Part shown: piece after piece, positions 3,629-59,072 of the stretch
Numbering within the stretch: the stretch's first letter is position 1
Layout of the letters: each line of letters opens with the position of its first letter
Position numbers and translations under genes: made by a program
The notes under the pieces: generated by a model
The model's database searches: none
What the model was told of the DNA's origin: nothing
The model's input: the letters and a program-made list of their open reading frames with translations, nothing else
DNA from: an uncultured virus (IMG/VR IMGVR_UViG_3300034110_001238)
Lineage: Duplodnaviria; Heunggongvirae; Uroviricota; Caudoviricetes
Strand: one strand, 5' to 3'
Virus record (IMG/VR): IMGVR_UViG_3300034110_001238
Length of the DNA stretch: 64,000 nucleotides

Positions 3629-3704
3629 TGGTGGAGAAGATGGGATTCGAACCCACGACCTCTTGTATGCCATACAAGCGTTCTACCAACTGAACTACGA
3701 CCCC
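3629..3704 (-). tRNA. tRNA-Ala(GGC)
   Basis: Cloverleaf; anticodon arm CTTGT-ATGGCAT-ACAAG; G3:U70; encoded CCA; two acceptor-stem mismatches. Confidence 0.85.
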
Positions 3705-3713
3705 ATAATAAAG

Positions 3714-3835
3714 TAGAAAGGAATGGATTCGAACCATTACCACTATCACATGGCCTATAAATTACTAGAATTTATCTGACATATGATTTACGTTACCGGG
3801 TCATCCCGGCTGCTCTCCCGTTAAGCTACCTTTCT
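3714..3835 (-). ncRNA. tRNA-like RNA with a non-canonical anticodon loop and a ~55-nt hairpin in the variable-arm position
   Basis: Acceptor AGAAAGG/CCTTTCT, D arm TAGCTTAACGGGAGAGC, T arm AATGG-TTCGAAT-CCATT; no encoded CCA. Confidence 0.7.
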
Positions 3836-3842
3836 ATTAATC

Positions 3843-3917
3843 TGGTGGTTCTGCAAGGAATCGAACCTTAATCATCCCGTTATGAGCGGGGTGCATTTAC
3901 CGTTATGCTACAGAACC
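3843..3917 (-). tRNA. tRNA with CAT anticodon (Met or Ile2)
   Basis: Acceptor GGTTCTG/CAGAACC; loop CT-CAT-AA; CCA. Confidence 0.85.
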
Positions 3918-3934
3918 ATAATTTACATCTAATT

Positions 3935-4011
3935 TGGTGGGACTTGTAAGACTTGAACTTACGACCTGCCGATTATGAGTCGGATGCTCTAACCAACTGA
4001 GCTAAAATCCC
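3935..4011 (-). tRNA. tRNA-Ile2(CAT), lysidine type, reads AUA (Met not excluded)
   Basis: TAGCTCAGTTGGTTAGAGCATCCGACTCATAATCGG..GGTC resembles enterobacterial tRNA-Ile2; CCA. Confidence 0.8.
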
Positions 4012-4082
4012 ATAGTGAATGAATGCCCCCGTAAACCACGGCTTCAATCCAGTCTTACCTTTACAGTAAAACTCCCTTATTC

Positions 4083-4159
4083 TGGCGTCCGTGATAGGAT
4101 TTGAACCTACGACCTTCCGCTTAGGAGGCAGACGCTCTATCCAACTGAGCTACACGGAC
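4083..4159 (-). tRNA. tRNA-Arg(CCT)
   Basis: TCTGC-CTCCTAA-GCGGA; A20 in D loop; GCCA end. Confidence 0.9.
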
Positions 4160-4169
4160 AAAACAAAAC

Positions 4170-4244
4170 TGGTGGACCGTCAGGGACTCGAACCCAGCAC
4201 TCCTGCGTGCAAGGCAGGTATTTTCCCAGCTAAACTAACAGCCC
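4170..4244 (-). tRNA. tRNA-Ala(TGC)
   Basis: CCTGC-CTTGCAC-GCAGG; G3:U70; ACCA. Confidence 0.9.
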
Positions 4245-4441
4245 ATAATAGTATTTCCGCTAACGCTTCAACGATAATAAATATCTCCACGCTTCGAGGT
4301 AACGGTAAATACTTACCGGATATACTTATCAGAAGTCATACTGCAGTGATTAAGCTGCTTCAATCATACGTGACCAGTATACTAGTTGCTAATCAGGCAA
4401 CATGTATCGTTTAAATAAGTTGAATAATCAACTAACTAATT

Positions 4442-4517
4442 TGGCATTCCCAGTAGGACTCGAACCTACAACCGATGACTTAGAAGGTCATTGCTCTTCC
4501 AGTTGAGCTATGAGAAT
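4442..4517 (-). tRNA. tRNA-Arg(TCT)
   Basis: ATGAC-CTTCTAA-GTCAT; GCCA. Confidence 0.9.
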
Positions 4518-4533
4518 ATAAAAAACTATTATT

Positions 4534-4607
4534 TGGTGGAGTCTGAAAGTTTTGACCTTTCATTTACAAGTTGCCTTGTTGTTTTCCGATAGTTAAACTA
4601 AAACCCC
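4534..4607 (-). ncRNA. tRNA-Ala-like RNA with the anticodon loop replaced by a GCAA tetraloop
   Basis: Acceptor GGGGTTT/AGACTCC-ACCA with G3:U70; arm ACAAG-GCAA-CTTGT; T arm GAAAG-GTCAAAA-CTTTC. Confidence 0.75.
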
Positions 4608-4624
4608 TTATAAAACTTTAAAAC

Positions 4625-4701
4625 TGGTGGACACATATGAGATTTGAACTCATGACATCCTGCTTGCAAGGCAGGCGTTCTACCAACTGAACTAATGGCC
4701 C
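4625..4701 (-). tRNA. tRNA-Ala(TGC)
   Basis: CCTGC-CTTGCAA-GCAGG; G3:U70; one-base bulge in acceptor stem. Confidence 0.85.
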
Positions 4702-4716
4702 ATAAAACTTATAAAC

Positions 4717-4791
4717 TGGTGGAGCTATATGGACTCGAACCATATTCTTTAGAAAAAATCCCAAGGTTTTGCCAGTTAAACTAAAAGCCCC
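4717..4791 (-). ncRNA. tRNA-Ala-like RNA with a degenerate U-rich anticodon arm
   Basis: GGGGCT...AGCTCC-ACCA acceptor, intact D and T arms; arm TTGGGATTTTTTCTAA has no 7-nt loop. Confidence 0.7.
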
Positions 4792-4808
4792 ATTGTATTA
4801 CTTAAATC

Positions 4809-4883
4809 TGGTGGACCGACAGAGAATCGAACTCTGAACTCCTGCGTGCAAGGCAAGTGTTTTCCCAGTTAAACTATCAGCCC
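4809..4883 (-). tRNA. tRNA-Ala(TGC)
   Basis: CTTGC-CTTGCAC-GCAGG; G3:U70; ACCA. Confidence 0.9.
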
Positions 4884-4903
4884 ATATCTGGTTACATCTA
4901 ATT

Positions 4904-4980
4904 TGGTGTCTACGGTTGGATTCGAACCAACGACCATCCGCTTAGAAGGCGGATGCTCTATCCAACTGAGCTACGCAGAC
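4904..4980 (-). tRNA. tRNA-Arg(TCT)
   Basis: TCCGC-CTTCTAA-GCGGA; ACCA. Confidence 0.9.
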
Positions 4981-5004
4981 ATATTTCTTTCTATACAACT
5001 AATC

Positions 5005-5079
5005 TGGTGGACCGTCAGAGAATCGAACTCTGAACATCTGCGTGCAAGGCAGGTATTTTCCCAGTTAAACTAACAGCCC
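5005..5079 (-). tRNA. tRNA-Ala(TGC)
   Basis: Near-copy of 4170..4244 and 4809..4883. Confidence 0.9.
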
Positions 5080-5120
5080 ATATTTTAAATTTGATCTAAA
5101 ACAAATCAAGCCAACAAATT

Positions 5121-5198
5121 TGGTGGAGACAAAGAGAATCGAACTCTTCACAGTCTGCGTGCAAGGCAAACTCGCCATCCCTTGGAACATGTGCCCCC
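5121..5198 (-). tRNA. tRNA-Ala(TGC) with an atypical D arm
   Basis: Acceptor GGGGGCA/TGTCTCC; loop CTTGCAC; D region CATGTTCCAAGGGATGGCG. Confidence 0.8.
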
Positions 5199-6951: not shown

Positions 6952-7617
6952 ATGAGCATGACAGTCAACGATTTTCCACCAATTCTCAGCCATTTAGGTA
7001 CACAAGTGGGTAAAAAAGATGAATTAATTTTAGTAATCCCTAAGACAAGTAAGCTTTATTATATATTCACAAAAGAAGAAGACACTTACAAAAATAATAC
7101 TAATCAGTTTATCAATAGTTTAAAATCATTAATAGCTTATGAAGATATTGAAGAACATATCACCAGTATTGAAAAAAATGAAACATCAATTACGGTAATC
7201 ATTAATCTTAAACATATAAAATATCAAACAATCACAGTAGGTGATGACTACAATTCAAAGAACCCATTTGTATTTGAATATACGATTGGACATGGCTATG
7301 TAATCAATATACAAATGATAACCATTCGTTATACACAAGACGATATTGTTGAATTATATCAAGAAACAAAACAGTTAGTCAAAAAATGCAAAGACGCTTT
7401 AATTAGAATTGGCTATACTTCCCATTTTTATTCATCCAAATACAAAAATGATAAAAATATAGTACAAGTTTGGATTCGGCCTGAAAAAATCTCGTGTACA
7501 TTAACGTTATCAATCTATGAAAAATATGTATATAAAAATTATAACAACTTAGACAAACTAATGAAAGAAAATAACCTTGATAAACAATACCAAATACTTG
7601 ACACCATTTTAAAATAG
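6952..7617 (+). CDS. Hypothetical protein, paralog of 7630..8394
   Basis: Shared FPPI/FPMI, VGxKx, IPxTSxL and LDxxY...ILK. Confidence 0.7.
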   Translation: MSMTVNDFPPILSHLGTQVGKKDELILVIPKTSKLYYIFTKEEDTYKNNTNQFINSLKSLIAYEDIEEHITSIEKNETSITVIINLKHIKYQTITVGDDYNSKNPFVFEYTIGHGYVINIQMITIRYTQDDIVELYQETKQLVKKCKDALIRIGYTSHFYSSKYKNDKNIVQVWIRPEKISCTLTLSIYEKYVYKNYNNLDKLMKENNLDKQYQILDTILK

Positions 7618-7629
7618 GAGAAAAATATA

Positions 7630-8394
7630 ATGATAAAAAAAACATTAATAATGCTACTATCAATCTATTCGCTAAATACTTATGCGGATGATAAAAAAAC
7701 AGAAACCCAAAAGACACTTGAAAACTTTCCAATGATTTTTACTCAAATGTCAAAAATGGTTGGCGAAAAAGAAACTGTTGATATCTTTATACCAGACACA
7801 TCCTACTTAATAGATACCTTCTATCCTAAAAAAGAGTTAGAAGATAGTAGTCATCTTGTTGTTAGTTTTGCAAGATTGCGTAGAGGCTTAGGATCAAGCA
7901 CCAGTCCTGATATCGCAAAAAGAATTATCAATACAGTAGATACTGAAAATGGTAAATTGATTACTATTGATCTGAAAGGATTAAAACGACAAACATTCAG
8001 AGTGGTCGCTGATAATTCTTTTAATGATTTTTTTAACGAATATGAATTTGCTGATGGTAAAGTGCTTAAAGCTAAACTGATTTTATCAAAAACTAGTATG
8101 TCTAATGATTTTGAAGAAACAGAGAGAGACTACAAATATTTAGCAAAAAGATATAATACCTTTCTAGATAACCAACATTTTAACAAATCATTATTTAACA
8201 ATGGTCGTATCAATGATAAAGAAAAACTCTATGTATCAACCAGTATCGACAAAGATAAAAATTATGCAATAAACAGTATTACATTGACCATAATGAACAG
8301 TAATATACAGGAAAATTACGATAAAATTATTGAAGATTTAGATGAAAAAGACCTAGATAATAAGTATAAAGAATTAAATGATATTCTAAAATGA
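7630..8394 (+). CDS. Secreted hypothetical protein
   Basis: Signal peptide ending TYA; paralog of the upstream gene. Confidence 0.7.
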   Translation: MIKKTLIMLLSIYSLNTYADDKKTETQKTLENFPMIFTQMSKMVGEKETVDIFIPDTSYLIDTFYPKKELEDSSHLVVSFARLRRGLGSSTSPDIAKRIINTVDTENGKLITIDLKGLKRQTFRVVADNSFNDFFNEYEFADGKVLKAKLILSKTSMSNDFEETERDYKYLAKRYNTFLDNQHFNKSLFNNGRINDKEKLYVSTSIDKDKNYAINSITLTIMNSNIQENYDKIIEDLDEKDLDNKYKELNDILK

Positions 8395-18286: not shown

Positions 18287-18315
18287 TTGACTTCTTAAAA
18301 AATAGAGCGTAGAAT
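18287..18315 (+). promoter_or_regulatory. Sigma70 promoter of the Pth2/HD operon
   Basis: TTGACT-17 nt-TAGAAT. Confidence 0.75.
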
Positions 18316-18348
18316 TATAACTGTAAATCAAACAAAGGAGATTACATC

Positions 18349-18810
18349 ATGTTGTAGATTGATAATAACGAATTCGACTTCATCACCAAAGAGGCTATCC
18401 TTAGCCAATACACTCAATTTGTTCCTTCGGACAAAGACTCACATTACTACATCTATTCAATTATTCGCGGCGATTTAAACATGCCAACGGGTAAGCTTGC
18501 TGCTCAAGCTGGTCACGCTTATACGGATGCATTGACAAACGCACAAGAATCGCACCCAGAAAACGTTAAACTTTACAGAAATCGTCAATCGGGCGGATCT
18601 AAGGTTACGTTAAAAGCTAAAAACGAAGATCACTTAATTAAAGCATACAACCAAGCTATTGCTGCGGGATTGCCATGTTCAATTGTTGTCGATCAAGATC
18701 ACATCTTGCCACCACACTTTGATGGTTCACCTATCATTACCGCACTCGGTATTGGTCCTTGCACTAAAGAAGAAGTGAAACAAATCACCAAGAAATTTCA
18801 GTGTGTGTAA
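18349..18810 (+). CDS. pth2: Peptidyl-tRNA hydrolase, Pth2 family, with an in-frame TAG at codon 3
   Basis: YSIIRGDLNMPTGKLAAQAGHA, KVTLK and TALGIGP; AAGGAG SD 8 nt before ATG TTG TAG, in frame with 18481. Confidence 0.85.
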
Positions 18811-18819
18811 GGGGGATTT

Positions 18820-19587
18820 ATGAATAAAGAATTAATATTAACCCTAATTAATGAACACACAATCAAACTGAGTGATTCATCTATTCAACGATTAATCGAG
18901 TTGTCTGAAATTAAAGCCAACTGGGATGGTCGTGATGCTGAACCTATGAATGAAAATTCTTGCAGAGAGATGTTGTATTTTCTTAATAAAATAAGTGACA
19001 GTATCCCTAACGATATCGGGTTCTTCTTCAACCATGAAGGGATGATGAGTATCAACTGGATGTTGAACAATCAGTTAGTAGACGTTTCTTTTGAACCAGA
19101 AGCAACTTATCTATACATGACAGGTTATGATGATGGTATTGCACTCCCTCGATCAGTGTTTAAACATTTCAAATACACCGATCCAGAAAGCTGTTTTGTC
19201 AAGTACAAAACAAAATTAGAAATGGTTTCTGGATTATTATATAAGTTAGAACACGATACAGCGAAAAATTTAGTTGAAAGGATTGCTTATGACTATGGTT
19301 GGGGCGAACATGGAGATGAATTAGAAATTAATACAGATGCCTTACATTCCTTTGTTCATTTTATAGACAACTTAGAGGTATTGCCAGAAAAAATCCTTAT
19401 TTTTCTCACTCATGAAGGGTATTTAGAAGTCGTGCTGATGGATTATGATCCACGTCACGAAATAGAATTTACACCAGAAGGGTTGCTGTTTTTCTTAGCC
19501 CCTGAATATGACATGACTGAAGTCAGTAAAAATAATTTCAACCAATATAAAGATATTAATGATTTTCTAAAAGGAGAAATAAAATGA
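18820..19587 (+). CDS. Hypothetical protein with an internal duplication
   Basis: NWDGRDAEPMN...FFNHEG and GWGEHGDELEIN...FLTHEG. Confidence 0.7.
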   Translation: MNKELILTLINEHTIKLSDSSIQRLIELSEIKANWDGRDAEPMNENSCREMLYFLNKISDSIPNDIGFFFNHEGMMSINWMLNNQLVDVSFEPEATYLYMTGYDDGIALPRSVFKHFKYTDPESCFVKYKTKLEMVSGLLYKLEHDTAKNLVERIAYDYGWGEHGDELEINTDALHSFVHFIDNLEVLPEKILIFLTHEGYLEVVLMDYDPRHEIEFTPEGLLFFLAPEYDMTEVSKNNFNQYKDINDFLKGEIK

Positions 19588-19946
19588 GTAGATTAGCAAT
19601 GATAAACACCATGAAAACATTTTTAAAAACAGAACGTCCCTATCGCGATGATAAAGGACATAAAGTCAAAGTCTTGTTCTTAAAAGACTATATGCTGTAT
19701 GCTTTACTAAGAGAAACAAAAGATTTTACGAAATGTGCAACGGACAAATCGGAAGCTATTTCTATTGCTCTCGACTGGTTAAGTGCTGTCGAAAAATCCA
19801 GAAAACAACTAGAACTTAATAACTTAGAATCTTGGGATTTAAAAGCATTAAAATATAAAATAGGCGTTGACTTTACAGTAGATGATTTGGTACAATTAGA
19901 GCATGCAATAAAGAACCAAATAGAAACATTTAATGCTTCAAAATAA
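19584..19946 (+). CDS. Hypothetical protein
   Basis: AGGAG SD; overlaps the previous stop. Confidence 0.65.
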   Translation: MSRLAMINTMKTFLKTERPYRDDKGHKVKVLFLKDYMLYALLRETKDFTKCATDKSEAISIALDWLSAVEKSRKQLELNNLESWDLKALKYKIGVDFTVDDLVQLEHAIKNQIETFNASK

Positions 19947-19976
19947 CACAATTCATTACTTATTAGGAGAACGACC

Positions 19977-20576
19977 ATGACTATGTAGATTGATAACATT
20001 GAAAACCTTAGCTTCAAAGATCTTGTTAAAGAGATGAAAGCCTGTGAACAAACACAAGGCATGAACGTTCTTCAACATGGATTATCAGTCAATAAATACT
20101 TTCAAGATTTGAAAGATCACATTATTGATGGCAAACCATTAACGCTCGAATGGAGACTTCCTGAGTGGATTTATAACAAATCTATTTGGAATAACTTAGT
20201 AGACGAAAAAGACATAAAAACTTATCAGATTTATCACGACTGTGGTAAACCCTTCTGTTTGACTGTTGATGAAAATGGTAACCGTCACTTCCCTGACCAT
20301 GCACAAGCATCTGGTCTAATCTGGCGTAAAATCGGTGGCACTGAACTTCAAGCTCAATTGATGGAGCATGATATGGACATTCATTTGCTTAAAATGGATG
20401 ATTTTGAAACGTTCTATGCACTACCATTCGCTGCAACCCTTTTGATTACTGGCTTCTGTGAGATTCATAGTAATGCTTCCATGTTTGGTGGTATTGAATC
20501 CACGAGCTTTAAAATCAAATGGAAAAAAATTAACAAAATCGGCAAAAAATTTAATGATAAACTATTAGGAGAATAA
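19977..20576 (+). CDS. HD-domain phosphohydrolase with an in-frame TAG at codon 4
   Basis: QHG, YHDCGKP, HFPDHA and HDMDIH; AGGAGA SD before ATG ACT ATG TAG, in frame with 20034. Confidence 0.8.
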
Positions 20577-20578
20577 TC

Positions 20579-21013
20579 ATGAACGCTATTGAACAAAACA
20601 AAACTAACGAAGTCACTGAAACTGAAATGAACAAAAGAGATTTAATTAAAAAAGCAGTGGTCACCTTTCGAGAAGGTTACCAAGAGAATAAACACAACTG
20701 CAGTTTAGAAATATTTATGTTGTATGCGATTATTAAAGGTAAACATGTCGATGTCACCATTAGAGATAATCGTTACAAAGTTGGGGTTAATCCTTTTGAT
20801 TACCATCCAGTCTTTAAATACAACATTGAAAAGATTGCTAATATCAATGCAGGTATTTTAATTGAATATGGTCAGGGTGCAGTAAGAATCATCTCAAAAA
20901 GCAATTACGTGGTAAATTCGGTCAATGAAAAAGTTAAATACTTCTTTGGTTTATCACCAACTGAATTTGAGTTCTTACTTAACCAGTATGTAGATGAAAG
21001 AAAAGCCTCTTAA
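20579..21013 (+). CDS. Hypothetical protein
   Basis: AGGAG SD; last gene of the operon. Confidence 0.65.
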   Translation: MNAIEQNKTNEVTETEMNKRDLIKKAVVTFREGYQENKHNCSLEIFMLYAIIKGKHVDVTIRDNRYKVGVNPFDYHPVFKYNIEKIANINAGILIEYGQGAVRIISKSNYVVNSVNEKVKYFFGLSPTEFEFLLNQYVDERKAS

Positions 21014-53211: not shown

Positions 53212-54000
53212 ATGAAAGAACAAGATATCAAACACATTGAAGCTATTAATGATTTTTTTGGAAAATCTATTCGCTCTGAATACAGCACTGTAAGAAATGA
53301 ACGTGGTGATTACCATGTCATGAATATTTCACCGTTTGACAATAAAATAATTCGTTGTCATTTTAAAAAGTTTGCATATCCTGTAACAATAGCGGAAACA
53401 ATCTATAAGAATAATTGTAGTTTTCATTTAACTAATATGAGCGATGTCGATGTTTCATACATTTTTAGAGACAACGATTATAATTATGATATAGTTGAAA
53501 AAGTTATCAACGCTTTATTTAAGTTAGGTCAAGAATTTAGCTTTTATACTGAAATGTCACCTATTCAAAACATTAAATTGGAAAATAACTTCAACAAGAA
53601 TGGTATTCAAAAGGCTGTAATTGTTCCAACGGTAACAAAATTGACACTTTCATCAATACTAGCGGATAAAAGTGCCAGTGGGATGCCCACAAAGAAAACG
53701 GCAATCGTTCATTTGGCGTTCATGGTTTCAAATGACAATCAACTTCACCCCGTATTAGAATTAGCAATACCCTACTCAGTCTCAAAATTTACTCGATTTT
53801 CAATTCATCTTCACCCATCCAAAAGAGATGAACAAATTAAGCATATTCCTGTTATTTTGAAAGAATTTGAAAATTTACTTATAACACATTTGGATTTTGT
53901 GTTAACCAAATTTTTAAAAATTAAGAAAAATGAATTAGCTACCATGACCTTAGAAGATAAAAAGAACTATCTATCTGTTGTTGAGATGGCTAGAATTTAA
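53212..54000 (+). CDS. Paralog array member 1
   Basis: YNY, GQEF, HPV, PY and TLEDK.NY. Confidence 0.8.
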   Translation: MKEQDIKHIEAINDFFGKSIRSEYSTVRNERGDYHVMNISPFDNKIIRCHFKKFAYPVTIAETIYKNNCSFHLTNMSDVDVSYIFRDNDYNYDIVEKVINALFKLGQEFSFYTEMSPIQNIKLENNFNKNGIQKAVIVPTVTKLTLSSILADKSASGMPTKKTAIVHLAFMVSNDNQLHPVLELAIPYSVSKFTRFSIHLHPSKRDEQIKHIPVILKEFENLLITHLDFVLTKFLKIKKNELATMTLEDKKNYLSVVEMARI

Positions 54001-54084
54001 ATTTAACGATATTAAAGAAGGTGTCAAAAAATGAATGAACCCAATTATAAAATAGCTTTTGATAAACTACTAAGTGGATATTAG

Positions 54085-54888
54085 ATGACAGAGTTCGATA
54101 AAGAAAAAAAATACAAAAAAGCTTTTCATCATTTCTTGGGAAAAATGTTAAATCCTGCTTATACAAGAATTGAGAGTGGGATGACTGATAGTTTAACGCA
54201 TATTTTAAAAAATGATAACTTTCCTAATCGCAAAGCGATTTCGTGTGTTTTCACTCATCATGCTAAATTAGAAAAAGTAGGTGAGACATATTATGATACG
54301 TCCTGCAAGTTTCAGTTTCAAAACATGCCAAGTGATGATTTAACAAAACTATTCAATAACAATACTTATAATTATGAATTAATTCAACAAGTTTTAATGG
54401 AATTTATAAAAATAGGTCAAGAATTTAAATTTTTTACAACATACACACCTATTAACGATTTTAAAATAAGTGACAGTTACAGTAAAGGCGTCTATTATTG
54501 TTCGGAATCTGTAAGAGCATTGACAAAGATAACATTAACCAGTTTGATTGCAGCAAAAACCCTCAATGGTCATGAAAAGAAAAAAACAGTCATTTATCAT
54601 CTTGGATTTAAAGTATCAGTGAATAATAGAATCGAGCCTGTCTTGAGTCTATCTATCCCTTATACAATGAACAAGTCTATGCTGGTTTCAATTAACATTC
54701 ACCCTTCAAAAAAAGAAGAAATGATAAAAACAATACCGTCAATATTAAGTGATTTCAAAATATTGTTAACTGAGCATATCGATATTCTTTTAAATAAATC
54801 GCTAAAACTCAAAAAAGCAGATATACTGAAATTAACCTTAGAAGAAAAAATGAGCTATCTGCCATTAGTAGAGATGGTTAAATTTTAA
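54085..54888 (+). CDS. Paralog array member 2
   Basis: Same motifs. Confidence 0.8.
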   Translation: MTEFDKEKKYKKAFHHFLGKMLNPAYTRIESGMTDSLTHILKNDNFPNRKAISCVFTHHAKLEKVGETYYDTSCKFQFQNMPSDDLTKLFNNNTYNYELIQQVLMEFIKIGQEFKFFTTYTPINDFKISDSYSKGVYYCSESVRALTKITLTSLIAAKTLNGHEKKKTVIYHLGFKVSVNNRIEPVLSLSIPYTMNKSMLVSINIHPSKKEEMIKTIPSILSDFKILLTEHIDILLNKSLKLKKADILKLTLEEKMSYLPLVEMVKF

Positions 54889-54912
54889 AAATTAGGACAA
54901 TAGGATTTAAAC

Positions 54913-55686
54913 ATGAATAAAGAAAATAGGTATAAAGAAGCCTTTAATAAACTGTTAGCGGCAAAAACACCAGAAAATCGTGTTGTTTACAGACAACATG
55001 GGATTCAACATGAGTTAGTGAGTATTAACGATTCAGTTAACTATTATATAAATGCTAGCTTTTATCCGAGTAGGCCAAATAGTCAAGAAATTTATCAAAC
55101 TGACTGCCAAATAAATACACGAGGTGTGCCTTATGATGTATTAAAAGACATTTTTGAATCTCAAAACTACAATTACGAACTAGTTGAAAAAGCCCTACTC
55201 GATTGCTTTGAAATAGGTCAATCATTTAGTTTCTTCAACACGATGCAAGATATCAAAAACATTAAGCTACATGACAGCTTTGATTATAGCTACGATGAGC
55301 CACGTATCACGGTTAAAAATATAAGTAAATTAAACTTAGCCAGTTTTTTGAAACCTAGAAATGATGGTAAACCACTCAACAAGGTTGTCAGTCATAGTGT
55401 TCGTTTTTTTGTAAGCGATGATAATGAAATACATCCTGTTATGTATTTAACAATTCCTTATTGTTCATCATCTAGCTTCACGATAAAAATTTACTTACAT
55501 TCATCTCAAAAAGAAAGTCAATTAAATAATTTAGAGTTGCAAATAAATGACTTTAAAAGACTGTTAGAATACCATTTAGATTTTTTGTTAAACAAAAGAA
55601 TTAAGTTAGCCAAAGATGAAATAGCTCGCCTAACATTAAAAGAAAAATTAAATTATATACCAATATTAGAAATGAACGCATTTTAG
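54913..55686 (+). CDS. Paralog array member 3
   Basis: Same motifs; ends at TAG. Confidence 0.8.
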   Translation: MNKENRYKEAFNKLLAAKTPENRVVYRQHGIQHELVSINDSVNYYINASFYPSRPNSQEIYQTDCQINTRGVPYDVLKDIFESQNYNYELVEKALLDCFEIGQSFSFFNTMQDIKNIKLHDSFDYSYDEPRITVKNISKLNLASFLKPRNDGKPLNKVVSHSVRFFVSDDNEIHPVMYLTIPYCSSSSFTIKIYLHSSQKESQLNNLELQINDFKRLLEYHLDFLLNKRIKLAKDEIARLTLKEKLNYIPILEMNAF

Positions 55687-55740
55687 TTGATTAAAGTTGT
55701 TTTTTTTGATATAATAGACCTCACGATAGAGGTTTATGAA

Positions 55741-56541
55741 ATGGATGAATCAACAATGTACTTGAATGCTTTTAATAAAATGACACAAAATTTAGTGCCT
55801 TCTGAAAATGAAATTGTTTTAACAGAAGGTGATTTTATAATGACTAATATTAAAAGTATCTATAAACATAAAGGAGAAAATACTAGCACTAGCTTACAAT
55901 ATAACTTTTATCGCTCGAATAGAGCCAAGATTCATGGACACTCATATCCATATATGTGTGAAATAATTGGTAATGATATTAAAGAAGACGTATTAAAAGA
56001 GTTTTTTAATGCTCAAAATTATAATTATCAAGCTATTCATGATACCGTTAAAGCCCTTTTTGAAATTGGTCAAAAGTTTGGCTTCTACAAAGAAATTACC
56101 GACTTAAAACATACAAAAATTGAAGAATTATACACACCTGTAAGAAAAGTTTCCAAAAGTGAGCAAAAACATTTAACAAAAATAACATTTTCTCCCATGA
56201 TGACTGAAAAACGATCAGCCGATAACTTGAAAAAGAAAGTAGCAAAAATTCATAACAACTTTTATCTTTATCAAAATAATGAGATTCAACCTATAGTCAG
56301 TATATCGTTGCCATATAGCTCATCCTACGATTTCTTGGTGAAACTAAATTTACATCCATCACAAGAAGCGGCTCAAAAAGAACATCTAGAACAGGAAAAG
56401 ATTCGTTTTTCGAAGGTCTTAGAAGAACATTTTGAAAGTGTTTTGAAAAGAAAACTTAAAATGAAAAAAGAAGATATTGCGGCCATGACTTTAGAAGAAA
56501 AATTAAATTATCTCATTGTTATAGACATGAACACAATTTGA
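55741..56541 (+). CDS. Paralog array member 4
   Basis: Same motifs; GAGG SD before MDEST. Confidence 0.8.
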   Translation: MDESTMYLNAFNKMTQNLVPSENEIVLTEGDFIMTNIKSIYKHKGENTSTSLQYNFYRSNRAKIHGHSYPYMCEIIGNDIKEDVLKEFFNAQNYNYQAIHDTVKALFEIGQKFGFYKEITDLKHTKIEELYTPVRKVSKSEQKHLTKITFSPMMTEKRSADNLKKKVAKIHNNFYLYQNNEIQPIVSISLPYSSSYDFLVKLNLHPSQEAAQKEHLEQEKIRFSKVLEEHFESVLKRKLKMKKEDIAAMTLEEKLNYLIVIDMNTI

Positions 56542-56577
56542 ATATAATCAAAAAATAAAATACTACTGGAGATATTA

Positions 56578-57396
56578 ATGAGCGAAGAACAAAACAATCT
56601 TATTCAAGTCTGTAAAGACTTTTTTAAAGATCAAGAAATTGATCAAATCAATACAGGTGAAAGCAACCATTATTTTAACAATGCTTTCATCGTAGATATA
56701 AAAGAATCTTCATCTAAGGTAATATTTAGATTTAAGGGTAAAGTTGGATATCCAAATAAATGTGTAGATTATGAAAAAGAGTGTGTTATTGGATTCGAAA
56801 ACATGAACAAAAAAACAGTAAGTGAACTCTTAGGTCCACAACAATATAATTATGCATTCATTGAAAAAGCTATAAAACATTTATATACACTGGGTGAAAA
56901 CTATAAGCTATTTAAAACGTTAAAGCCAGTTAAAAACCTTAGAATTGAACAAACCTTAGTATCAAGAGATTTGTGGACACATTACGAAAACACGCAATTT
57001 GCCAGCACACAAAATATTTCAAATATACAATTCTCAAATTTCTATAAGACTGAATTGCATAAACTAGAAAGAGGTGCAAAAAAATTGAAAGGTAAAAATA
57101 TGACCTTATGCTATCATTTTGTTGTAAGAAACAATGAACTTCATCCAATAGCAATAATTGATTATCCTGTAGCACCAAATGCCAGTATAGAACTCGCATT
57201 TGATATCCACCCTGCTCAGCAACAAGAAGCTGAAGAAAGATTGATCAAATACTCATCTGAACTAAAAGAAAGATTGATTAAACGAGTCAATCAGGTCTTA
57301 AAAAAAGAATTGCAATTTACTAATAAAACATTAGTAACGCTAACAACAGAAGATAAAATTAACTATTTGACAGTTGCTGAAATGTCGGAAATATGA
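56578..57396 (+). CDS. Paralog array member 5
   Basis: Same motifs. Confidence 0.8.
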   Translation: MSEEQNNLIQVCKDFFKDQEIDQINTGESNHYFNNAFIVDIKESSSKVIFRFKGKVGYPNKCVDYEKECVIGFENMNKKTVSELLGPQQYNYAFIEKAIKHLYTLGENYKLFKTLKPVKNLRIEQTLVSRDLWTHYENTQFASTQNISNIQFSNFYKTELHKLERGAKKLKGKNMTLCYHFVVRNNELHPIAIIDYPVAPNASIELAFDIHPAQQQEAEERLIKYSSELKERLIKRVNQVLKKELQFTNKTLVTLTTEDKINYLTVAEMSEI

Positions 57397-57426
57397 TACT
57401 GTTACTGTTAAATTATGGAGCCTTAC

Positions 57427-58272
57427 ATGAATGAAAGTCAAATAACCTGCTTAGACGCCTATTTAAAACTTTTTGAAGGAACCGCTTTTGATAAGCCTTC
57501 GTTTTACGAAGCAAACTCTAGCACAAGCACGGGTGTCGTTGGGGTTATTAAATCAAGAAATAAAGCAGTTAAGCAAAAAGAAATTGATGAAGAAAACGAA
57601 GAAATATATATGGCGTTTAGTTATAATACTGGTTATCGACAAGAAAAAGATGATTTTCAGTATAATGCTTTTTTACAGTTTTCAAATCTCAACAAGAAAT
57701 TTGTAAGTTCGCTGTTTAGTCAAGTTAATTATAATTATGAAATTGTGAATAAAGTCATCAATGATTGTTTCTTAATGGGGCAACAACATGCTTTATTTGA
57801 ATCACTTGAAACAATTAAAGATCCTGCCATTCATCATTACTTCAAAAAAGCGTATCAATTTAAAGGTATATCTCGAAAACTTATTTCAACTGAAACCAAG
57901 ATATCCGAAGTTAATTTTGCCGATTTTTTCAAAACTAAAAACAACACCAAAAATGGTAAGTTAAGAAGTCGAAGAATTACAATAGACTATAAATTTGGTA
58001 TCAGTAATGGTGTTATTCACCCACTGGCAGAAATAACATTTCCCATTTCTATCAGTGACAAAATGCTCATTACCGTTGATATTCATCCAGATGGTCAAGC
58101 GTTTAATGAACGACAACTCGAAAAAACAATGTCTAAGTTAAATATCGTATTAAAAGAAAGAGTTGATATGATTTTAAGAAAAGAATTAAAATTAAAAAAT
58201 AAATATTTATCAACGTTAACTTTTGAAGATAAATTGAATTACTTGAAAGTTGCTGAAATGTCCATGATTTAA
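57427..58272 (+). CDS. Paralog array member 6
   Basis: Same motifs. Confidence 0.8.
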   Translation: MNESQITCLDAYLKLFEGTAFDKPSFYEANSSTSTGVVGVIKSRNKAVKQKEIDEENEEIYMAFSYNTGYRQEKDDFQYNAFLQFSNLNKKFVSSLFSQVNYNYEIVNKVINDCFLMGQQHALFESLETIKDPAIHHYFKKAYQFKGISRKLISTETKISEVNFADFFKTKNNTKNGKLRSRRITIDYKFGISNGVIHPLAEITFPISISDKMLITVDIHPDGQAFNERQLEKTMSKLNIVLKERVDMILRKELKLKNKYLSTLTFEDKLNYLKVAEMSMI

Positions 58273-58283
58273 TCGGAGTATCT

Positions 58284-59072
58284 ATGATCAATGCAGATGT
58301 GGTATTAGCAGCCTATCATGAGATGTTTGATAATACATCCTTTGAAAAGTATTTAAGTCCCAAAGACAAGTATTCCATTTATGAAGTTGTAGGCATTGAT
58401 GAAACAGTTAAATACAATACCAGTACCGTAGCCTGTGTGTTTGCTAAACCTCAACGATTGATTCCCAATATGTTGTATGAATATCATTGTTCGATGAAAT
58501 TTAGATATGTAGAAAATGAAACCATTGATCAGTTATTTGGAAATAAAAACTATGACTATACTTATGTCAGTAATGTTTTTAATGAGTTCAATATTATTGG
58601 CGAACGTTATGGATTTGTCAAAAAAATTGAAATAAAAGATTATTCAGTAGAAGGACAATTTAAAAGTATATTGATTGAAAAAAATAGCTCATTCAAACCG
58701 GCTGGTGTCGTTACTCTTTCAAATGCATTGGTTCAATTCGATCCAGATTATAAAAAAATGGTGTATGCTTGTACAATCAATATCGAGTTGACATTCATAG
58801 TTAAGAATAACAAATTACAGCCAGTATTGATAGTTTCCTATCCTGTATCTGCAAAAAAACGTTACTACCTATATTTAAACATTCATCAGGATAACAAATG
58901 CAATCAAAAAATAGAATTGTTAGAATTTAAAAATGGTTATGAAGTCAAAGTTAAAGAACATATGGATGTTTTACTAAAAAATAATTTTAAAATGACAGTG
59001 GCTGATTTAAAACAACTAACGATGGACGATAAAATAGACTACATGAAAATTATTGAAATGGGCACTATTTAA
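58284..59072 (+). CDS. Paralog array member 7
   Basis: Same motifs. Confidence 0.8.
   Translation: MINADVVLAAYHEMFDNTSFEKYLSPKDKYSIYEVVGIDETVKYNTSTVACVFAKPQRLIPNMLYEYHCSMKFRYVENETIDQLFGNKNYDYTYVSNVFNEFNIIGERYGFVKKIEIKDYSVEGQFKSILIEKNSSFKPAGVVTLSNALVQFDPDYKKMVYACTINIELTFIVKNNKLQPVLIVSYPVSAKKRYYLYLNIHQDNKCNQKIELLEFKNGYEVKVKEHMDVLLKNNFKMTVADLKQLTMDDKIDYMKIIEMGTI

Follow-up and report, generated by a model that had tools for sequence, protein, structure and literature searches.

Conserved in-frame stop codons behind minimal leaders in the PTH2 and HD-type genes of an apparent jumbo phage: possible gating by a suppressor tRNA

Introduction

The prfB gene, which encodes RF2, contains an early in-frame UGA that is passed by a +1 frameshift, and in this way the gene senses its own product. 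The bar minigenes of phage lambda, each consisting of a ribosome-binding site (RBS), an ATG, one or two codons and a stop, release short peptidyl-tRNAs that are substrates of peptidyl-tRNA hydrolase; they are free-standing, and cells deficient in Pth are poisoned by them. Here we describe a comparable arrangement in a stretch of 64,000 nucleotides (nt) from an uncultured virus (IMG/VR record IMGVR_UViG_3300034110_001238; this whole stretch is hereafter the window), in which two genes of one operon, encoding a PTH2 peptidyl-tRNA hydrolase and an HD-type protein, each open with an RBS and an ATG, one or two codons after which an in-frame TAG follows. As in prfB, an early in-frame stop in a translation-related gene could act as a sensor of release factor versus alternative decoding, but unlike in prfB the frame in the window is unchanged and the competitor would be a suppressor tRNA. 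Unlike the bar minigenes, which they resemble in layout, the mini open reading frames (ORFs) of the window are fused in frame to the PTH2 and HD genes.

In recoded phages, the phages' own suppressor tRNAs have been proposed to read in-frame TAG or TGA codons, a dependence by which expression would be timed or gated (Borges et al., bioRxiv 10.1101/2021.08.26.457843). The window resembles these phages in that a phage suppressor tRNA is proposed to read in-frame stops of phage genes in a standard-code host. In recoded phages, however, many genes of the structural and lysis modules carry many in-frame stops each, while the window otherwise uses the standard code and has such stops in just two genes, after a leader of 2–3 codons, with tRNA-servicing enzymes as the targets. 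Unlike the targets in recoded phages, these enzymes are physically fused in some phages. An engineered feed-forward "leak dampener" obtains two-input expression from an amber codon and a separately expressed suppressor tRNA (PMC7969014), and the system of the window would be its natural counterpart. That phage suppressor tRNAs read in-frame stops is already known; the standard code, the restriction to one or two genes, the minimal leader and the tRNA-servicing targets set the present case apart. In full-text searches of the literature, supplements aside, we found no paper describing leader-stop gating of tRNA-servicing enzymes.

Two Leader-Stop Genes in One Operon

The two openings were compared with those of two relatives, an IMG/VR contig of 181 kb with 97–99% protein identity to the window (G001) and a metagenome contig of 114 kb with 95% identity (L145). 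In both relatives, both leaders and both TAGs are letter-identical to those of the window. The features of the openings and of the frames that follow them are:

18335..18340, + strand: RBS AAGGAG of site 1, 8 nt 5' of the leader ATG; same letters in G001 and L145
18349..18357, + strand: leader of site 1, ATG TTG TAG (Met-Leu-amber); conserved in G001 and L145
18358..18810, + strand: PTH2 peptidyl-tRNA hydrolase frame after the amber, 150 codons (Pfam PF01981)
19965..19970, + strand: RBS AGGAGA of site 2, 6 nt 5' of the leader ATG; kept in G001 and L145
19977..19988, + strand: leader of site 2, ATG ACT ATG TAG (Met-Thr-Met-amber); conserved in G001 and L145
19989..20576, + strand: HD-type protein of the phrog_14850 family after the amber, 195 codons (PHROG match)
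20034..20036, + strand: internal ATG, Met16 of the post-amber HD frame and a possible alternative start; the preceding AAAGAG abuts the ATG

Site 1 reads AAGGAG, 8 nt, ATG TTG TAG ATT GAT AAT, with the ATG at 18349, the TAG at 18355-18357 and the ATT at 18358, and the frame stays open to the TAA at 18808-18810. Site 2 reads AGGAGA, 6 nt, ATG ACT ATG TAG ATT GAT AAC, with the ATG at 19977, the TAG at 19986-19988 and the ATT at 19989, in frame with the ATG at 20034 and the TAA at 20574-20576. An earlier note on this DNA had described this second layout, and it was confirmed here at the same positions.

Between the window and L145, the PTH2 frames differ by 29 synonymous and 4 non-synonymous codons, and the HD frames by 28 synonymous and 10 non-synonymous codons. 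This purifying selection on both post-TAG frames indicates that the PTH2 and HD genes are not decaying. The earlier note had argued that the two ambers are not independent nonsense mutations, with which their conservation in the selected genes of relatives agrees, and its proposal that two enzymes of one operon are under common translational control is supported by the conserved, selected leader-stop layout. The in-frame stop is conserved among homologues and coding continues across it, as would be expected of a gene gated by a suppressor. The synonymous differences from L145 are sparse in the PTH2 segment 18358-18480 (2/41 codons vs. 27/109 elsewhere; Fisher p 0.005), which hints at an extra RNA constraint near the stop.

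A scan for an RBS and an ATG with a stop no more than 8 codons further on, and with the frame open for at least 90 codons beyond that stop, identified just the PTH2 and HD genes in the window. The same scan over the 181 kb of G001 identified the PTH2 and HD genes again, together with one TAA candidate.

The PTH2 and HD genes are the first and fourth of five + strand genes downstream of a promoter-like site, both hexamers of which are retained in G001 and L145. The remaining features of the operon are:

18287..18315, + strand: promoter-like site ahead of the operon, read directly as TTGACT, a 17-nt spacer and TAGAAT; putative function
18820..19587, + strand: operon gene 2, 255 amino acids (aa), no Pfam or PHROG match
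19584..19946, + strand: operon gene 3, 120 aa, no Pfam or PHROG match
20579..21013, + strand: operon gene 5, 144 aa, no Pfam or PHROG match

The window is AT-rich, with a GC content of 31.7%, and its DNA-level matches are to jumbo phages only. It looks like part of a jumbo phage.

PTH2 Genes

The frame after the amber of site 1 reaches 85.4 bits with PF01981, for which the curated cut-off is 23 (E 4.4e-24), and the match covers positions 3-113 of the 115 in the profile. The PTH2 domain occupies residues 32-148 of the post-TAG frame, which shows the GKLAAQxxHA motif. No ATG, GTG or TTG occurs among the initial 41 codons of this frame; the first canonical start is the ATG at 18481 (codon 42), which lies inside the conserved GDLxMxxGK segment, and a PTH2 protein begun there would miss the first strand of the fold.

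In the PTH2 subfamily with an N-terminal extension, 11 IMG/VR loci were examined, among them G001 and Agrobacterium phage Atu_ph07 in its IMG/VR version. All 11 have an RBS and an ATG, with an in-frame stop 1-6 codons later (10 TAG, 1 TGA), and none of them has a canonical start between the stop and the domain. The leaders encode ML, MSY, ML/ITNSFL (seven loci), MTM and, followed by TGA, MIGEHF. The PTH2 gene of Atu_ph07 has its in-frame TGA at codon 7, and that of Sinorhizobium phage Phosso opens with MKY-TAG. A shorter PTH2-like gene opens with MT-TAG in Acinetobacter phage ME3 and with ML-TAG in Salmonella phage Arash. The distant classical PTH2 genes have an ordinary start in 4/4 cases. 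The Munch-type PTH2 was considered as a split gene and rejected as such, being a case of ordinary overlap.

HD-Type Genes

The match of the second protein to phrog_14850 (E 4e-65) begins at residue 4 of the post-amber frame. No Pfam family was matched at E<=0.01, and a PDB profile search reached E 0.02 at best, to 3wfo. The AlphaFold model has a predicted local distance difference test (pLDDT) score of 95.5, and its best Foldseek match is to the class II tRNA nucleotidyltransferase 3wfo/3wfr (E 2e-3, TM 0.6), followed by weak matches to the HD phosphohydrolases PhnZ, PgpH and YfbR. Residues H30, H44, H83-D84, H104, D128 and H132, which form the H...HD...D pattern of metal-binding residues, are invariant in 38/38 homologues. 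The earlier note had suggested that the HD protein may repair tRNA ends or degrade a nucleotide signal; as far as the invariant HD dyad and the nearest fold, a tRNA nucleotidyltransferase and only then HD phosphohydrolases, can tell, an activity on tRNA ends is plausible. Met16 (ATG 20034) is also invariant in 38/38 homologues, and about half of the gene predictions begin there. The segment between the TAG and ATG 20034 aligns with homologues that have ordinary starts, and residues 9-18 form a confidently modelled helix.

Leader-stop openings are common among the homologous HD loci of two sets, 80 metagenome loci classed by eye and 79 IMG/VR loci classed by script, which share some contigs and include many related loci, so that their counts are not independent. 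The metagenome loci comprised 51 with a leader and TAG, 4 with a leader and TAA, 1 with a leader and TGA, 16 with an ordinary start, 5 ambiguous cases and 3 cut at the 5' end. The IMG/VR loci comprised 47 with a leader and TAG, 3 with a leader and TGA, 2 with a TAG and no recognised leader, 10 with an ordinary start, 5 with an ordinary start and an internal TAG, and 12 in which the HD frame runs upstream into a PTH2-like domain. The leaders are mostly 2-4 codons long (2-8 overall). Among cultured phages, Ralstonia phage RsoM2USA opens its HD gene with MKS-TAG and Xanthomonas phage XacN1 with MK-TAG (ATG AAG TAG), and all five Mimasvirus/Eneladusvirus-type phages examined have an ordinary HD start but share a TAG at codon 47, which precedes the HD motif.

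We noticed that in L155, L202, L223, L230, L232, L242 and L254, and likewise in L256, L261, L267, L273, L296, L303 and L304, no stop separates the HD frame from a PTH2-like domain upstream, with which it is joined either as a fusion or as an in-frame overlap; in L155, L202 and L223 an early TAG stands at the start of the PTH2-like part. The presence of HD and PTH2-like domains in one frame argues that the two enzymes work together.

The four metagenome loci with a 2-codon leader and TAA (L146, L148, L149 and L151) belong to two lineages, and L148, which reads ATG TTG TAA ATT GAT AAA, is a near-match to site 1 of the window. These loci may use the Met16 start or another route past the stop, given that genomes so rich in AT would pay a high price for an ochre suppressor.

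Sequence Context of the Stops

The 13-mer TGTAGATTGATAA, which the earlier note had pointed out at both sites, is indeed present in exactly two copies in the window (18353-18365 and 19984-19996) against an expected 0.01, and none of 100 shuffles reached two copies. With up to 2 mismatches it is not enriched (9 matches vs. 5.8 expected). The two genes that share it are non-homologous, as the note had held (BLASTP E 0.18 between the PTH2 and HD proteins); a copied start region, or selection for one good context, is a possible reason for the same 13 bases in unrelated genes.

The note's proposal that UAG-AUU-GAU-AAY is a programmed read-through signal is not supported if the motif is taken to act in cis by itself, as the codons after the stop, the stop itself and the leader all vary among homologues and no RNA structure was found. 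TAGATTGATAA recurs only within the sub-lineage of the window (L145 and L147, and L148 with TAA in place of TAG), and the N-terminus encoded there is I-D-N/K. Only about half of the leader-type loci have ATT directly behind the stop (among HD loci, 23/42 in the metagenome set and 17/50 in the IMG/VR set), and GTT, GTA, CTT, AAC, CAA, AGC, GAT, ACT and GGC are found in others. No significant fold was detected in the RNA after the stop (z-scores 0.12, -1.05, -2.06 and 0.41). Common to the loci are the short leader, a purine after the stop and, usually, a gene for the cognate suppressor tRNA in the same genome. A purine directly follows the stop in 39/42 metagenome and 47/50 IMG/VR leader loci, and in such a context suppressor tRNAs are reported to compete better with release factor (PMC6266110). 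This +4 purine is the only general element; a 3' context or structure shared by all members was not found.

Suppressor tRNA Genes

A suppressor tRNA matching the stop is present in 8/8 cultured phages checked, CUA with TAG and UCA with TGA:

Yen9-03 and GAP32: stop TAG; CUA tRNA ~2.5 kb from the gene
ME3: stop TAG; CUA tRNA ~0.4 kb upstream
Phosso: stop TAG; two copies of a CUA tRNA, one ~4.4 kb upstream
RsoM2USA: stop TAG; CUA tRNA
Arash: stop TAG; CUA tRNA, predicted before inspection and annotated as tRNA-Phe
XacN1: stop TAG; CUA tRNA as reported in PMC5852040
Atu_ph07: stop TGA; UCA tRNA, no CUA tRNA

Stop and anticodon match in further phages. The MS-TGA leader of L222 is accompanied by a flanking UCA tRNA; G030, a complete genome with an MTWS-TGA leader, has two UCA tRNAs 2.7 kb upstream and no CUA anticodon among its 40 tRNAs, while its relatives L279, L293 and L297 use TAG, L297 together with a CUA tRNA. 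Stop and anticodon thus covary across phages. In the PTH2 group with ML/ITNSFL leaders, a lone CUA tRNA lies 2-5 kb upstream on the same strand in 7/7 loci, and CUA is the commonest anticodon near HD genes (21/155 tRNAs in the metagenome set and 38/132 in the IMG/VR set). A pattern combining the CUA anticodon loop with the T loop matched 28/49 records, with 34 matches vs. 6 in the reversed control, and ARAGORN confirmed 21 of the 30 that were fetched. At least two further matches resemble CUA tRNAs with an enlarged D arm. These probable tRNAs (L316 1462-1541, + strand; L322 1463-1541, reverse strand), which adjoin leader-TAG HD genes, were reported neither by ARAGORN nor by Infernal at E<=0.01, and censuses of phage suppressor tRNAs may therefore undercount. 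Pairwise comparison with phage tRNAs was uninformative about the amino-acid identity of the suppressors (best 0.6-0.8 to Trp, Lys, Thr and others). A role of the suppressor as an initiator tRNA that reads UAG as a start was rejected; by eye, the suppressors look like elongator tRNAs, and the leader ATG is always present.

The window carries a tRNA cluster of its own:

3629..5196, - strand: tRNA cluster (Ala x7, Arg x3, Met x2, Lys and others); 12 genes by ARAGORN, the same and one odd tRNA-like by Infernal

Neither program found a CUA, UCA or UUA anticodon in this cluster. The odd tRNA-like (3714-3835, - strand) is 122 nt long, is conserved in G001, scores 41.7 bits with Infernal RF00005 and is not called by ARAGORN. 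It has normal acceptor, D and T arms, a 6-nt loop (GAUGAC) in the anticodon position and an extra hairpin of 53 nt with the loop CUAGU; it is not credible as the missing decoder, as its CUA lies just in the loop of the extra hairpin. A degenerate tRNA-like of G001 (L134 19146-19215, 28.4 bits) was likewise rejected, its anticodon not being CUA, and loose CUA-pattern matches in two further phage genomes, G021 and G043, proved to be tRNA-Arg(UCU).

The region 3629-5196 forms an array of near-duplicates, with six tRNA-Ala(UGC) as well as Arg and Met tRNAs, and at 77.6-79.5 kb of G001 (L134 17914-19800) there is an array of about a dozen tRNA-Leu with five different anticodons. Some members of the arrays have anticodon loops of 6 or 8 nt ('tt', 'cgct'), and the degenerate tRNA-like of G001 is also one of them. 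Such arrays could serve as decoys or spare parts against host defences that target tRNAs.

Discussion

On balance, we consider it somewhat probable that the PTH2 and HD enzymes are both gated by read-through, with an amber suppressor tRNA encoded by the phage as the decoder. Ribosomes would initiate at the leader ATG of each gene, behind a well-placed RBS, and would reach the UAG after one or two further codons, where release factor 1 would end most attempts with a peptide of 2-3 residues. The full enzyme would be made only when an amber suppressor tRNA with the anticodon CUA reads the UAG. This tRNA would most likely be a phage product, its gene lying in a region of the genome outside the available sequence, and the output of both enzymes would thus be tied to the activity of one tRNA relative to that of release factor 1. 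The gate could be a timer tied to the expression of phage tRNAs, a leak-proof lock, or a feedback loop between tRNA and enzymes.

Several observations weigh against this proposal. No CUA tRNA was found in the window or in the 181 kb of G001 by ARAGORN, Infernal or a permissive structural scan, which does recover atypical CUA-positive tRNAs, nor was one found in 20.6 kb of L145. Given that the CheckV completeness of G001 is 58%, we regard the missing tRNA as a gap and not as a refutation. G043, which is 94% complete and has an MT-TAG leader, contains 44 tRNAs and no suppressor, and G021, which is 97% complete and has a TAG leader as well as an internal TAG, contains a UCA suppressor only. In the flanks of the TAA-leader HD loci, no UUA tRNA or other suppressor was seen. 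In the IMG/VR set, a CUA tRNA accompanies ordinary-start HD genes in 6/10 and leader-TAG HD genes in 17/47 cases; the tRNA is therefore tied to the HD locus as such, and linkage alone is no proof of decoding. The metagenome set gave p 0.05 for tRNA-CUA near TAG-bearing vs. TAG-free HD genes (Fisher test; 0.014 after regrouping), a result on which we do not rely, as the IMG/VR set lacks that contrast. The invariance of Met16, finally, means that a shorter HD form may arise with no read-through at all.

A shorter form would follow if the HD protein were made from the internal ATG at 20034, with the leader and stop acting as a decoy or a regulatory mini-ORF. Besides the invariant Met16 and the many gene predictions that start there, such a start would fit the TAA-type loci and the suppressor-less genomes. 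The 15 codons between the TAG and Met16 are nevertheless conserved as protein, as seen in the PHROG match from residue 4, the N-terminal extensions of homologues and the helix of residues 9-18, and the RBS precedes the leader ATG and not the ATG at 20034. This route could account for the HD gene only, since in PTH2 no canonical start is available before the domain has begun, and even for HD we hold it to be improbable. Read-through programmed in cis is unlikely, if somewhat less so. It would have the short leader and UAG AUU GAU AA weaken release factor 1, with near-cognate host tRNAs reading the UAG, and would be in keeping with the lack of a detected suppressor tRNA in the lineage of the window and in G043, the UCA-only G021, the purine after the stop in most loci and the identity of TAGATTGATAA at both sites, which is kept in relatives, with the same 11-mer in L147 and its TAA version in L148. 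That context is not conserved across the family, however, there is no downstream structure, and both the covariation of stop and anticodon and the tight linkage of CUA tRNAs would be left unexplained. Cis read-through remains a fallback for lineages without a suppressor.

About equally unlikely is termination at the UAG of the mini-ORF followed by reinitiation at the adjacent weak start AUU, which would give low and possibly initiation factor 3 (IF3)-sensitive expression. ATT follows the stop at both sites of the window and in the 23/42 and 17/50 leader HD loci given above, ATG follows it in L169/L235 and L210, and the ordinary-start homologue P0004 has an ATG aligned near the post-stop position. 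A usable start is nonetheless not present in all homologues, many of which have post-stop codons that are unable to start (the nine non-ATT codons listed above); in most cases the post-stop residue is I, V, L or M, as constraint on a conserved hydrophobic residue would predict. Restarting could not bypass the internal TAGs at codon 47 or ~103, and it leaves the matching suppressor tRNAs unexplained. That the genes are decaying pseudogenes with nonsense mutations, or that the TAGs are sequencing errors, is exceedingly improbable: nothing beyond the stops themselves suggests it, while the leaders and stops are identical in three independent assemblies, purifying selection on both frames is strong, and the same layout is found in well over a hundred loci of diverged phages. 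Two further mechanisms were rejected. Under a global reassignment of TAG, as in code 15, a large share of genes would carry an in-frame TAG and gene calls under the standard code would be fragmented, but no such genes other than PTH2 and HD were found; the ORF map is dense under table 11, and TAG is a true stop, ending 5/72 listed frames of at least 120 codons, one of them antisense. Frameshifting or hopping at the leader is contradicted by the +1 frame, which was read by eye and closes quickly, and by the position of the domain in frame 0.

Returning to read-through by a suppressor tRNA, we tentatively suggest, as a possibility that goes beyond the window, that standard-code jumbo phages possess a module of a suppressor tRNA, a PTH2 or PTH2-like enzyme and an HD-type tRNA-end enzyme, the last two sometimes fused, in which the enzymes are translated past a stop behind a leader of 2-8 codons only when licensed by the tRNA, and that this module is the target of orphan suppressor tRNAs. 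Such a module would be a self-referential checkpoint, in which tRNA-servicing enzymes are made in proportion to the working phage tRNA that competes with release factor. The tRNA of the phage in the window would then lie in unsequenced DNA or would have been replaced by another way past the UAG.

The authors of the XacN1 genome report that they were unable to identify target genes of its suppressor tRNAs (PMC5852040), and the Atu_ph07 paper names none (PMC6102473). The orphan suppressor tRNAs of XacN1 (CUA) and Atu_ph07 (UCA) belong to the same phage groups and are the same tRNAs as those considered here, and the PTH2, PTH2-like and HD genes, as candidate targets of jumbo-phage suppressor tRNAs, may answer this open question. 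Such candidates have been missed because the stop lies behind a leader of 2-8 codons and gene callers start downstream or split the gene; the stops in the XacN1 HD and Atu_ph07 PTH2 genes went unnoticed because the annotation starts these genes downstream. The pattern points to systematic mis-annotation in GenBank. Of the PTH2-like gene of Arash (L002) just 51 aa are annotated, and the CUA tRNA of that phage bears the label tRNA-Phe; the PTH2 annotations of Atu_ph07 (L087) and Phosso (L091) are truncated and begin at an internal ATG, and the HD gene of the Mimasvirus group (L003/L046-L049) is annotated as two genes, split at the conserved TAG.

If the read-through is real, it would be a compact natural gate by which one tRNA controls a small set of genes in a genome of normal code, and it could represent an early step toward stop-codon reassignment. 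It would also link suppressor tRNAs with the metabolism of peptidyl-tRNAs and tRNA ends, and may bear on how phages cope with attacks of the host on tRNAs.

Additional Observations

In the window, the gene at 6952-7617 ends in TAG, beyond which its frame runs on without another stop into the gene at 7630-8394. Neither gene matches a family; an amber suppressor would fuse their products. The region 53212-59072 contains seven tandem paralogues of ~260-285 aa with no Pfam family and 31% identity between neighbours. The TAG of the gene at 54913-55686 leads in frame into the next copy, and the TTG directly after it was considered as a read-through junction and rejected, as the homology of the next paralogue starts at its own Met19.

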